DNA of 64,000 nucleotides from Thermoanaerobaculia bacterium (GCA_036522835.1 DATDFB010000057.1:3906-67905), one strand, 5' to 3'; shown: positions 22,923 through 27,841, counted from the first letter of the stretch. Translations and numbers: made by a program. Notes: a model not told the origin generated them from the sequence alone.

Positions 22923-23822
22923 ATGGTCCTCATTAACAAAGCGATTAACGAAGTGACGGTGAAGCTCGTCTATTACGGACCCGGTCTGTGCGGGAAGACG
23001 ACCAACCTGGAGAAGATCTACGGAAACCCGAAGCTCGAGAACAAAGGGAAGATGATCTCGATGTCGACGGAGACGGACCGAACGCTCTTTTTCGACTTCA
23101 TGCCGATGGAGCTCGGCACGATCGGCGGCCAGAAAGTGCGCGTGCAGCTCTACACCGTGCCGGGGCAGGTGTTCTACGACGCCACGCGCAAGCTCGTGCT
23201 GCGCGGCGCGGACGGCGTGGTCTTCGTGGCCGACTCGCAGTCGTCGATGCGGGAGTCGAACCTCCAATCGCTCGAGAACCTGATCACGAACCTGCGCCTC
23301 AACCGCATCGATCCGCAGAAAATCGCGCTCGTCTTTCAGTACAACAAGCGCGACCTGCCGAACGTCGACAGCGTCGAGGACATGAACGGATACCTGCATC
23401 CCGACGGCATTCCGGTCGTCGAGGCGGCGGCGATCAACGGCACCGGAGTGACGGCCACGCTGCGCACGGCGGTGGCGCGGATCCTCGACAACCTGAAGAA
23501 GGGCGTCGACACGACGCTGCACGAGGAGCCGGAGCTGGCGCCGCCGGACTTGAGCGTGGGGCTGTCGGGAAAACCTGTCGATCCGTTCGCACCAGTCGAC
23601 GAAGAGCCATTCGAGGCCGATGTCGCCGTGGCGGTGGCCGAGGAGGAGACGGAGGACCCGTTCGCGGCGCCGGCGGCGGAGATCCACGACACGGGCGCCG
23701 AGCGCGCCGAGCTCGAGGCCATGCTGGCGGGGGCGCGCGAGGTCGTGGCCTCGCTCGAAGCCGCGCTCGAGAAAGCGCGCCACCAGGAACGGCGGCTCGC
23801 GGATAAACTCGGCGCGCTTTGA
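22923..23822 (+). CDS. MglA-like Ras-family small GTPase with acidic C-terminal extension
   Basis: VKLVYYGPGLCGKTTNLEKIY...TDRTLFFDF...LYTVPGQVFYDATRKLVLRGADGVVFVADSQ...NKRDLP closely resembles MglA; extra ~100 aa Glu/Ala-rich tail. Confidence 0.72.
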   Translation: MVLINKAINEVTVKLVYYGPGLCGKTTNLEKIYGNPKLENKGKMISMSTETDRTLFFDFMPMELGTIGGQKVRVQLYTVPGQVFYDATRKLVLRGADGVVFVADSQSSMRESNLQSLENLITNLRLNRIDPQKIALVFQYNKRDLPNVDSVEDMNGYLHPDGIPVVEAAAINGTGVTATLRTAVARILDNLKKGVDTTLHEEPELAPPDLSVGLSGKPVDPFAPVDEEPFEADVAVAVAEEETEDPFAAPAAEIHDTGAERAELEAMLAGAREVVASLEAALEKARHQERRLADKLGAL

Positions 23823-24520
23823 CCTGGTTCCACGAATGGTTCGGCGAGGAGTACCTCGCGCTCTACTCGCATCGTGACGACGACGAGGCGAGGCAGCAGG
23901 TCGTCTTCTTCAAAGAGCATTGCGGCGCCGTGCGCGGGCCGCTCCTCGACCTCGCCTGCGGCAAGGGGCGGCACATCGCCGAGCTGCGCGCCGCCGGCTA
24001 TGGCGCGGTCGGCTGCGACCTCTCCTTCACGCTGCTGCGCACCGGCCGCGCCGAGTACGGGCCGCTCCCGGTGGCGCGCGCGGACATGCGCGCGCTGCCG
24101 TTCTGCACGGCGGGCTTCGCCGGCCTGGTGAGCTTCTTCACCTCGTTCGGGTACTTCTCGGTTGAGGAGGAAAACGTGGCCGTCGTACGCGAGATGGCGC
24201 GCGTGCTGGAAAAGGGGGCGGTGTTCCTCTTCGACTACCTGAATCTGCACCGGGAGCTGGAGAAACTGGTGCAGCGCGAGACGCGCGGCGACGTCACGAT
24301 CGAGCGCTGGTTCGACTCGCAGGACCGCTCGTTCAACAAACGGATAACAATCGGACAAAAGCGCTACCTGGAGCGCGTTCGCGGATACGATCTCGACGAG
24401 ATCTCGATGATGTTCACGACGGCGGGCCTGACGATTCGCGCCGCGTTCGGCGATTTCCTCGGTGCGCCGTTCGAAATGAGCTCGCCGCGGCTGATCGTGC
24501 TGGGGACGAAGAATCGATGA
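23819..24520 (+). CDS. class I SAM-dependent methyltransferase
   Basis: LLDLACGKGRH motif I; ATGA-coupled to MglA-like gene. Confidence 0.8.
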   Translation: MTWFHEWFGEEYLALYSHRDDDEARQQVVFFKEHCGAVRGPLLDLACGKGRHIAELRAAGYGAVGCDLSFTLLRTGRAEYGPLPVARADMRALPFCTAGFAGLVSFFTSFGYFSVEEENVAVVREMARVLEKGAVFLFDYLNLHRELEKLVQRETRGDVTIERWFDSQDRSFNKRITIGQKRYLERVRGYDLDEISMMFTTAGLTIRAAFGDFLGAPFEMSSPRLIVLGTKNR

Positions 24521-26004: not shown

Positions 26005-26720
26005 AACCCGTCGACGCCATCTTCTTCGACGCCCATCCCGACGACATCGAGCTCTCCTGCGGCGGCACGATCGTCGACTTCGTCAGCCGCGGCCTCAGGG
26101 TCGGCATCATTGACCTCACCAGCGGCGAGATGGGGACGCGCGGCACGCCCGAGACGCGCCGCCGCGAGGCCTCCGCCTCCGCCGAGATCCTCGGCGCGTC
26201 CTTCCGCGAGCAGCTCGACTTCGGCGACGGCGCCCTCCGCACCGGCCGCGAGGAAGAGCTGCAGATCATCGGCGTCATCCGCAAGTACCGCCCGAAAATC
26301 ATCTTCGCGCCGTGGCCCGACGAGCGCCATCCCGACCACGCCCGTGCCGGGCGCCTCATCACCGAGGCGTCGTTCTACGCGGGGCTGCGCGCGCTGGAGA
26401 CGGCGCTGCCCGCGCACCGCCCGCAGGTCACGATCTACTACCTGCAGAACTACCTTCCGCCGATCAGCTTCGTCGTCGACGTGTCGAAGGCGTGGCCGAC
26501 GAAGATGCGCGCCATCGGCGCCTTCGAGTCGCAGTTCTACAAACCGAATTCGACCGAGCCGGAGACGTTCATCGCCAAGAAGTCGTTTCTCGACATGATC
26601 GAGGCGCGCGGCCGCCACTTCGGCGCGCTCATCGGCGCGGAGTACGGCGAGGCCTACGTGACGAAGCAGCCGCCGAAGATCGAGGACGTGATCGCGGCGT
26701 ACAGCGGGAGGGAACCGTGA
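26001..26720 (+). CDS. bshB: bacillithiol biosynthesis deacetylase BshB (PIG-L/LmbE family)
   Basis: FDAHPDDIELSCGGT ... HPDH; ATGA-coupled. Confidence 0.8.
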   Translation: MKPVDAIFFDAHPDDIELSCGGTIVDFVSRGLRVGIIDLTSGEMGTRGTPETRRREASASAEILGASFREQLDFGDGALRTGREEELQIIGVIRKYRPKIIFAPWPDERHPDHARAGRLITEASFYAGLRALETALPAHRPQVTIYYLQNYLPPISFVVDVSKAWPTKMRAIGAFESQFYKPNSTEPETFIAKKSFLDMIEARGRHFGALIGAEYGEAYVTKQPPKIEDVIAAYSGREP

Positions 26721-27841
26721 GAATCGGCATCACCTGCTACCCCACCTTCGGCGGCTCCGGCGTGGTAGCCACGGAGCTCGGCATCGCTCTGGCCAAGATG
26801 GGCGACGACGTCCACTTCATCAGCTACGCGCCGCCGTCGCGGCTCAACATCCTCCACGAGCGCGTGCGCTTCCACGAAGTCACGGTCACGCCGTATCCGC
26901 TCTTCGATCCGTTCCCGCCGTACACGCTGGCGCTGGCGACGAAGATGGCGGAGATCGCCGAGTACGAGCGCCTCGACGTGCTGCACGTGCACTACGCGAT
27001 CCCGCACGCCATCAGCGCCCACCTCGCCCGCGAGATCCTCGGCGACAAGATGCGCTTCGTCACCACCCTGCACGGCACCGACATCACCCTCGTCGGGCGC
27101 GACGCGTCGTATCTGCCGATCACGAAGTTCGGCATCGAAGTCTCCGACGGCGTCACGGCCGTGTCGCATTGGCTGCGCGACGAGACGGAGAAGAACTTCG
27201 GCACGAAGAAGGAGATCGCCGTCATCCCGAACTTCGTCGATCCGCTGCGCTTCCAGCGCCACGAGAGCGCGTTCTGCCACCTCTTCGGCGACGCCGGCGA
27301 CCGCCTCCTCTGCCACGTCTCGAACTTCCGTCCCGTGAAGCGGATCATGGACGTGCTGGCCGTCTTCGAGCGCGTGCTGCGCGTGATCCCGAGCCGCCTG
27401 GTGATGATCGGCGACGGCCCCGACCGTTCCAAGGCCGAGGCGTTCTGCCGTCAACATCATTTGAAGGACCGCGTCTTTTTCCTCGGCAATGTTCCGAATC
27501 TCGAAGAGATCGTCGGCGCCAGCGACGTGTTCCTCCTGCCCAGCGAGCACGAGTCGTTCGGCATGGCCGCGCTGGAGGCGATGGCCTCGGAAGTCCCGGT
27601 CATCGCCACGCGCGCGGGCGGACTGCCCGAGGTCGTGGTCGACGGCGAGACCGGATACCTCCTGCCGGTCGGCGACGTCGACGCCATGGCCGAGCGCGCC
27701 ATCGCCATCCTCACCGACAAGGTCCTGCAGCGCCGCCTCGGGCGCGCCGGACGCGCGCTGGCGGAGGAGCAGTTCAACGTGAACCGCGTCGTGCCGATGT
27801 ACCGCGAGTTCTATGAGAAGTTCCTGGTTCTTCGTTCTTAG
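26717..27841 (+). CDS. bshA: N-acetyl-alpha-D-glucosaminyl L-malate synthase BshA (GT4)
   Basis: GTG start overlapping bshB stop; RIGITCYPTFGGSGVVATELG ... EHESFGMAALEAMASEVPVIATRAGGLPEVV. Confidence 0.8.
   Translation: MRIGITCYPTFGGSGVVATELGIALAKMGDDVHFISYAPPSRLNILHERVRFHEVTVTPYPLFDPFPPYTLALATKMAEIAEYERLDVLHVHYAIPHAISAHLAREILGDKMRFVTTLHGTDITLVGRDASYLPITKFGIEVSDGVTAVSHWLRDETEKNFGTKKEIAVIPNFVDPLRFQRHESAFCHLFGDAGDRLLCHVSNFRPVKRIMDVLAVFERVLRVIPSRLVMIGDGPDRSKAEAFCRQHHLKDRVFFLGNVPNLEEIVGASDVFLLPSEHESFGMAALEAMASEVPVIATRAGGLPEVVVDGETGYLLPVGDVDAMAERAIAILTDKVLQRRLGRAGRALAEEQFNVNRVVPMYREFYEKFLVLRS

Follow-up and report, generated by a model that had tools for sequence, protein, structure and literature searches.

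Why does the gene of a Ras-like polarity GTPase stand at the head of a set of genes for making a low-molecular-weight thiol? The question is raised by five genes at 22923-27841 on the + strand of a stretch of DNA from an uncultured Thermoanaerobaculia bacterium of the Acidobacteriota (GCA_036522835.1, DATDFB010000057.1:3906-67905). The whole stretch, 64 kb long with a GC content of 67%, is called the window here. In the initial annotation the five genes were read as an MglA-like GTPase, a methyltransferase dependent on S-adenosylmethionine (SAM), BshC, BshB and BshA, and these identities are borne out by the family assignments. All five open reading frames (ORFs) show high third-position GC, as real genes do in a window of this composition. 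The same annotation held that a link between such a GTPase and low-molecular-weight thiols is not a described arrangement. We found no description of MglA together with bacillithiol in the literature searched, where the pairing of bacillithiol with MglA or with Thermoanaerobaculia gave nothing relevant and the single match concerned an unrelated Francisella MglA. The answer that we propose, and regard as reasonably probable when taken as a whole, is that genes two to five form an N-methyl-bacillithiol operon, that two promoters serve it, and that mglA is tied to it by co-expression without shared chemistry.

Results

Genes two to five as a predicted N-methyl-bacillithiol operon

The five genes are packed with 4-nt overlaps at all four junctions, as had been noticed at first reading, but only three of these overlaps have the reported ATGA/GTGA form (ATGA at 24517-24520, ATGA at 26001-26004, and GTGA at 26717-26720). 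The first one, between genes one and two, is TTGA (23819-23822) and contains a TTG start. This TTG is the homologous start of gene two, since relatives open the same protein with ATG, GTG or TTG, followed by ACC TGG.

The last three genes belong to the known bacillithiol families. Gene five, bshA (26717-27841, + strand, 374 aa, GTG start), encodes a predicted N-acetyl-alpha-D-glucosaminyl L-malate synthase. It scores 510.9 bits with the TIGR03999 model (cut-off 273.7) over residues 1-370, compared with 63 bits for the MshA model (cut-off 462). Gene four (26001-26720, + strand, 239 aa) encodes a predicted GlcNAc-malate deacetylase of the BshB1 type, which contains a PIG-L domain and scores 272.3 bits with TIGR04001 (cut-off 182.5), while the BshB2, MshB and Mca models stay far below their cut-offs. 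Gene three (24517-26004, + strand, 495 aa) encodes a predicted BshC with both expected Pfam domains, the Rossmann-like PF10079 (129.7 bits) and the C-terminal coiled-coil PF24850 (53.1 bits), both above the gathering score of 27. Its sole PDB match is Bacillus subtilis BshC (4WBD, E 9e-24), and close homologues carry the NCBI name BshC.

Gene two (23819-24520, + strand, 233 aa) encodes a methyltransferase, as first read, but its NmbA-like identity had been missed, and it is hence not an unrelated passenger. The best PDB match is 9RI2 chain A (E 4.6e-24, query residues 2-229 vs chain residues 15-259), which is the bacillithiol N-methyltransferase NmbA of Chlorobaculum tepidum (CtNmbA, PMC12719100), and the next match has an E-value of 5.2e-9. 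The two proteins are 34% identical over 227 aligned residues. Motif I of NmbA (VLDIAxGxG, described in PMC12719100) is present as LLDLACGKG, and the adenine/SAM-stacking residues Y134/F135 lie in SFGYF. At the substrate and entry site, W16, W20, R70 and K198 are kept and H31 is replaced by Ser, with the neighbouring H32 kept. NmbA is also set apart by a Cap domain with a 'basket' architecture, and in this respect an AlphaFold2 (AF2) model of the protein, moderate in quality (predicted local distance difference test score, pLDDT, 74), again has 9RI2 as its top Foldseek match (E 1.7e-15), with little separation from CcbJ and CypM (~2e-14). Because Foldseek separates NmbA poorly from other N-methyltransferases with a four-strand cap, the identity rests on the sequence evidence.

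Could the enzyme have a different target, for instance a quinone, a small metabolite or the GTPase itself? An identity to CtNmbA of just 34%, the Ser in place of H31 and the narrow Foldseek separation would agree with this, as would the public annotation of homologous methyltransferases, which reads merely 'class I SAM-dependent methyltransferase', and the report that NmbA is lacking in most bacillithiol (BSH)-positive Acidobacteriota (Hammerstad et al., PMC12719100). However, among the solved relatives CtNmbA leads by 15 orders of magnitude, and its alignment runs from end to end. Both SAM-stacking aromatics are kept, as are four of the five substrate-site residues that the authors of the CtNmbA study adjusted, and UbiE, MenG and other equivalog models score far below their cut-offs. 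The gene also overlaps bshC by 4 nt in an ATGA junction and stands directly upstream of bshC in 45 of the 62 informative loci of the comparison described below. We regard a substrate other than bacillithiol as highly unlikely, and describe the enzyme as NmbA-like, a predicted bacillithiol N-methyltransferase.

Together with the published enzymology of bacillithiol and N-methyl-bacillithiol (PMC5790435, PMC6282198, PMC12719100), these assignments predict a full pathway. BshA would join UDP-GlcNAc and L-malate to GlcNAc-malate, BshB1 would take off the acetyl group, BshC would add cysteine, and the NmbA-like enzyme would methylate the cysteine nitrogen to give N-methyl-bacillithiol. Genes two to five would then be a complete and compact operon for this thiol in the order nmbA-bshC-bshB-bshA, and the ATGA, ATGA and GTGA junctions would couple translation among the four genes. 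An Rfam scan of the whole window found no RNA family, so neither the methyltransferase gene nor the thiol genes have a riboswitch match ahead of them. Family searches of the predicted genes found no bacilliredoxin, YpdA or DinB-type gene in the window.

The N-methyl-bacillithiol pathway of C. tepidum has the same four enzyme families and the same predicted product. Its genes are dispersed (CT0548, CT1419, CT1558, and CT1040), whereas here they form one overlapping operon. With its 34% identity to the C. tepidum enzyme, the window NmbA is at the edge of the 35% threshold of the published survey. The initial annotation had remarked on bacillithiol genes in what looks like a Gram-negative, Acidobacteria-like genome. 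They are no surprise there, as both bsh genes and nmbA had already been predicted in Acidobacteria (PMC6282198, PMC12719100); bshA-C are predicted in Acidobacteria and nmbA in about a third of BSH-positive genomes (Hiras et al., PMC6282198). A known pathway, already expected in this lineage, accounts for most of the cluster, and in this respect there is little out of the ordinary. A lineage in which nmbA appears nearly always present and fused to the bsh operon would be a modest extension of what is known.

The first gene encodes a predicted Group-1 MglA with a tail

Gene one, mglA (22923-23822, + strand), encodes a GTPase of 299 aa. Residues 2-198 match the MglA structures 5YMX/6H17 (E 7e-67), Thermus thermophilus MglA 3T12 follows with an E-value of 1.4e-52, and the next match is Rab11 (4e-6). 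The G domain (22923-23507, + strand) is 57% identical to Myxococcus xanthus MglA over 197 residues without a gap. R53 and T54, which include the intrinsic arginine finger (ETDRT), are kept with the same numbering as in M. xanthus MglA. The G3 motif is TVPGQ instead of DxxGQ (YTVPGQ at residues 77-82, with T78 and Q82), and NKRD is kept as well. Group-1 MglA proteins have been defined by an arginine finger next to the G2 threonine, by TVPGQ and by G-domain similarity (PMC4316618). On these features, gene one is predicted to encode a true switch GTPase of the Group-1 MglA kind. The JGI label 'signal recognition particle receptor subunit beta' was dropped because all MglA hallmarks are present. 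An alternative start at 22890 was also dropped, since homologues begin with MVLINKA and the -10-like hexamer is downstream of 22890.

The acidic tail of about 100 aa seen at first reading is confirmed as residues 196-299, 104 aa with 26 D/E vs 8 K/R. It consists of an acidic, Pro-rich linker (23508-23690, + strand) and a conserved C-terminal helix (23691-23819, + strand). The linker, residues 196-256, contains 18 D/E, 1 K/R and 9 Pro in 61 aa. In 120 MglA homologues, Pro precedes 307 of the 406 tail Phe residues, and the median number of (D/E/N)PF motifs in the linker is 2 per tail vs 0.06 in shuffled tails. The tail-end helix is ~42 residues long with the consensus AEIHDxGAERAELEAMLAxARxVVASLExALExAR. 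In an AF2 model based on 58 close homologues, the helix (257-298) has a pLDDT above 90 and the linker is disordered. Owing to the low diversity of the alignment, the G domain is poor in this model (mean pLDDT 60), and docking of the helix on the G domain is not readable from it. Judged by eye, the helix has the 3-4 hydrophobic spacing typical of coiled coils and looks like one. We note that the (D/E/N)PF motifs look like short linear binding motifs, with a superficial likeness to the acidic DDDIPF tip of SSB. In all likelihood the protein works as a nucleotide switch whose partners would be recruited through the tail.

The absence of an adjacent MglB, claimed in the initial annotation, agrees with our search, which was confined to the window and found no Roadblock/LC7 (MglB) domain in any predicted gene of the 64 kb. 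Coupling to MglB, the Roadblock GTPase-activating protein, is typical for Group-1 MglA but not obligatory, as 59 orphans are known (PMC4316618). Two of the known proteins, SofG of M. xanthus and the MglA of Bdellovibrio, are likewise Group-1 members without a coupled MglB, yet they are functional (PMC4316618). We found neither the tail architecture nor the conserved operon position of the window MglA described. The MglA proteins of M. xanthus and T. thermophilus (PMC4316618; 5YMX, 3T12) have the arginine finger, TVPGQ and NKRD in common with the window MglA, which differs from them in its 104-aa extension, in having no MglB within 64 kb, and in its thiol context instead of an mglBA operon.

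MglA proteins of 339-495 aa with long C-terminal extensions and without an adjoining MglB were also observed in distant Acidobacteriota, at the loci L075 (6478-11020), L076 (10001-11488), and L078 (10001-11185). At L075, mglA directly follows what appear, by eye from the ORF list, to be genes for a sensor histidine kinase and an NtrC-like response regulator. The long-tailed orphan MglA seems to be a phylum-wide theme.

Conservation of the gene order in Acidobacteriota

A scan with one genome per species gave 80 loci with relatives of the GTPase, all of them in Acidobacteriota and mostly in metagenome-assembled genomes of Thermoanaerobaculia. The window proteins were compared with these loci by tblastn and the results were mapped on the G-domain tree. 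Counts were taken from 70 species-level ingroup loci, using the informative ones only, and four contigs were examined from the BshC side.

At 49 of the 61 informative species loci bshC lies downstream of mglA, and at 12 it is absent; nmbA is present in 45 ingroup loci and absent in 17. Had the GTPase-bsh linkage been absent in all relatives, as the initial annotation allowed, it would have been read as a chance juxtaposition, which these counts contradict. Other adjacencies of the block are also retained: of 64 loci, 56 have an aldolase gene upstream of mglA and 8 lack it, and of 35 informative loci, 23 have a gene for an SLT-domain protein after bshA and 12 do not. The mglA-bsh adjacency is thus kept about as often as the aldolase-mglA adjacency. 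A deep clade, in which BshC identity is just 39-46%, keeps the aldolase gene and mglA-nmbA-bshC-bshB-bshA and has lost the kinase, SLT and proS neighbours. The locus L082 keeps mglA-nmbA-bshCBA behind wholly different upstream genes.

The pairing is missing elsewhere. In the L001 clade of ~14 species, the ten loci with informative downstream sequence are all without bsh genes, and at L001 a convergent CDF-type transporter gene and purE come after mglA. It is also missing at L035 and L048; at L084, nmbA-bshCBA stands behind an MprF-like gene, and in the distant Acidobacteriota L075, L076 and L078 the tailed MglA lies beside other, non-bsh neighbours. Since the pairing has been lost in a whole clade and on other contigs, the adjacency is dispensable, and the mapping on the tree points to it as ancestral in the lineage and mostly retained.

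Upstream of mglA, a gene for a Hanks-type Ser/Thr kinase (20621-22891, - strand, ~756 aa; Pkinase 176 bits and several TPR families) is transcribed in the opposite direction. The protein has a TolB-N-like middle region and C-terminal TPR repeats. The long kinase ORF reaches 22939. Homology to 19 relatives sets in only at residue 17 of this ORF, and in several of them in-frame stops occur shortly before that point, so the kinase most likely starts at ATG 22891, which leaves a divergent intergenic region of 31 bp (22892-22922) to the mglA start, close to the ~30 bp given at first. A JGI start (735 aa) was dropped because it cuts into the glycine-rich loop. The divergent kinase, part of the arrangement as first described, is present here but conserved between the aldolase gene and mglA in only 27 of the 64 informative loci (absent in 37). 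Bdellovibrio MglA works with a TPR protein, and the window mglA has a TPR-containing kinase as its divergent neighbour.

Candidate promoters and the mglA-nmbA junction

A TAnnnT hexamer is found 9-21 nt upstream of 15 of the 47 predicted starts in the window, vs ~0.5 expected from the genome-wide frequency. This suggests that the pattern represents -10 boxes of leaderless or very short-leader mRNAs, which would be common in the organism. The 31-bp gap between the kinase gene and mglA contains its sole AT-rich patch, ATGCTAATCT, and this patch holds two opposed -10-like hexamers with a 2-nt overlap: TAGCAT (22905-22910, - strand), 13 nt before the kinase ATG, and TAATCT (22909-22914, + strand), 8 nt before the mglA ATG. 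Another -10-like hexamer, TAAACT (23804-23809, + strand), lies in the last mglA codons, 9 nt before the nmbA TTG. It falls within GAT AAA CTC, and both GAT (13 of 99 Asp) and AAA (17 of 55 Lys) are minority codons in the five genes. At this distance from the nmbA start, relatives have TAGACT, TACACT or TACAGT (often ATAGACTCCGCGCC). Across the relatives, TAnnnT precedes mglA in 35/77, nmbA in 23/47, bshC in 0/38, bshB in 1/14, and bshA in 2/47, and in the window bshC, bshB and bshA have no -10-like hexamer upstream. We consider TAAACT at 23804-23809 a candidate internal promoter for nmbA-bshCBA.

Other window starts with an upstream TAnnnT include 522, 5969(-), 9077(-), 9124, 19816(-), 20611(-), 30457, 32225, 36145(-), and 57749(-). 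An extended motif, TAGACTCCGCGCC, recurs before the window gene at 9124 (3-hydroxyacyl-CoA dehydrogenase) and before nmbA in many relatives.

Two transcription starts, both of the leaderless or short-leader type, are proposed from these signals. The first would be located in the 31-bp gap common to mglA and the divergent kinase gene, and the second within the last mglA codons, just ahead of nmbA. The core operon nmbA-bshCBA would be expressed from its own promoter, and read-through from mglA would add to its expression; the thiol genes probably have both. A terminator scan of 22500-28300 gave just two terminator-like matches, both on the - strand and below the chance rate. Downstream, the cluster meets the convergent gene for an SLT-domain lytic transglycosylase (27838-29892, - strand, identified by family scan and given as context only). 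The stop codons of bshA and the SLT gene overlap by 4 nt (27838-27841), which marks the end of the cluster and leaves no space for an intrinsic terminator between them.

Translational coupling of all five genes was part of the initial annotation. The TTGA overlap of mglA and nmbA supports it in this genome, but this junction is the weakest of the four, since in relatives the gap varies from -4 to 524 nt (1188 nt in one case) and a hexamer precedes nmbA in about half of the scored loci. The gap contains an extra + strand gene at three loci, and in some relatives it holds simple repeats or a tandem array of the 3' end of mglA. At L051, for example, the final ~140 nt of mglA recur ~3 times in tandem in the gap (10864-11369), every copy coding for the end of the tail helix with a stop codon and flanked by a GC-rich hairpin (GGGGACCGGCTTCAGCCGGTCCC).

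Such a gap, which varies in length and takes in inserted genes and repeats, would also be expected if the synteny were neutral. In that case mglA would be monocistronic and nmbA-bshCBA an independent operon, the block would simply not yet have been rearranged, and the 4-nt overlap would be a by-product of compaction. The -10-like motif before nmbA and the similar retention of the aldolase-mglA and bshA-SLT adjacencies agree with this, and the inferred breakpoints (L084 and the L001 clade) are at the mglA-nmbA junction, with each partner intact without the other. However, a start/stop overlap occurs at this junction in six genomes including this one. Where nmbA is lacking, at five loci, the mglA stop and the bshC start are 2-8 nt apart, and no hexamer is seen at the four of them whose start could be scored, so that co-transcription must occur in those loci. 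In the deep clade, moreover, the pair outlasts every neighbour except the aldolase gene. We judge neutral synteny, the main rival of the co-expression reading, to be unlikely, although it deserves serious consideration.

Possible functional coupling of MglA and the thiol pathway

The retained adjacency may also be taken to mean that the tailed MglA serves the thiol pathway as a dedicated component or regulator, either as the protein factor that BshC appears to need or as a switch tied to the thiol redox state, for instance by C23, the one cysteine of its P-loop. In vitro reconstitution of the BshC reaction has never been achieved, and the reaction may depend on a further protein; BshC itself forms dimers by way of a coiled coil (PMC5790435). 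At the end of the MglA tail is a confidently modelled helix of ~42 residues with a heptad pattern. The adjacency holds across a deep split and altered flanks, and in loci without nmbA the mglA gene abuts bshC itself.

Other observations speak against such a coupling. The four pathway genes are dispersed in Chlorobaculum, the pairing is gone in a whole clade and at L084, and the tailed MglA occurs without bsh neighbours at L075, L076 and L078. C23 is invariant in all Group-1 MglA proteins, so it is not specific to this lineage, and nmbA appears to have its own promoter. Bacillus and Staphylococcus are bacillithiol producers and are not known to have an MglA; if they lack it, MglA cannot be a general BshC cofactor. 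We consider functional coupling quite improbable, and we hold it very unlikely that the tailed MglA is a dedicated bacillithiol partner in which the coiled-coil tail supplies the missing BshC factor or the GTPase switch is coupled to thiol redox.

Further features of the window

Several intergenic tandem arrays with units of 7-8 nt were observed, at 4723-4804, 16341-16371, 19825-19855, and 30365-30439 of the window, and also in gaps at L025, L038 and L050. The units are GAATGCA, CATTCTG, AGAATGC, GTTCTTA and AACCTAAG, and CATCTCT in L050. Several of these short arrays sit just upstream of -10-like hexamers. The arrays could serve as upstream promoter elements or for the binding of regulators, and may be typical of the lineage. 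A longer repeat at 56471-56683, with a 21-nt unit present ~8 times (CTTCGATCGGAATCGCGCGCT), lies between an HU gene (56068-56373) and a gene for an HD-domain phosphohydrolase (56724-57749, - strand).

The cluster at 6040-7854 contains an extracytoplasmic function (ECF) sigma factor gene (6512-7153) between genes for two LTXXQ/Metal_resist (Spy/CpxP-like) proteins (6040-6507 and 7438-7854), together with a 100-aa ORF without a family match. These genes may form a module for envelope or metal stress. ARAGORN predicted a 94-nt tRNA-Cys at 17605-17698, inside a glycosyltransferase gene (16520-17776). This is probably a false positive, and no tRNA was found at the Rfam gathering threshold.

Discussion

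We read mglA and the thiol genes as co-expressed housekeeping functions that would not belong to one biochemical pathway, by analogy with B. subtilis, in which the bsh genes share operons with mgsA, pan and other genes. There, bshA and bshB1 are in an operon with mgsA, and bshC has its own promoter plus read-through from panE (PMC5790435). The bsh operons of B. subtilis likewise mix in unrelated or loosely related genes, but the partner genes differ and no GTPase is among them.

Several points weigh against the picture as a whole. On the enzyme side, NmbA activity is predicted from 34% identity, with H31 of the pocket changed. BshC scores 236.1 bits with the equivalog model TIGR03998, just below the cut-off of 265.8 (495 aa vs a model of 529 positions); we take gene three to be bshC even so. 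On the side of transcription, the promoter hexamers have no recognisable -35 element, and a strict sigma-70 scan of 22500-28300 found no promoter, so the proposed promoters rest on the TAnnnT enrichment. A TTG start also suits a leaderless mRNA poorly, and it favours coupling of nmbA to mglA in this genome. Finally, an adjacency that survives to ~40% BshC identity and the replacement of both flanks is the usual sign of operon selection, which lends a functional link some weight.

In the literature searched, we found no description of a tailed MglA without MglB, nor of its retained place before a compact N-methyl-bacillithiol operon. Should MglA prove a dedicated partner of this pathway, it would be the first link of a Ras-like GTPase to low-molecular-weight thiol metabolism. 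The retained place of mglA ahead of the thiol genes offers a concrete, testable hypothesis of co-regulation, and it could bear, with less likelihood, on what BshC needs. The MglA variant itself, with a (D/E/N)PF linker, a terminal helix and no MglB in the window, would represent a widespread form of a well-studied polarity switch. For the thiol pathway, our analysis would widen the predicted range of N-methyl-bacillithiol to a large and mostly uncultured class of Acidobacteriota, and methyltransferases that carry a generic label would gain a specific proposed function. With the predicted pathway in a single compact operon, the locus would also be a convenient unit for heterologous expression.

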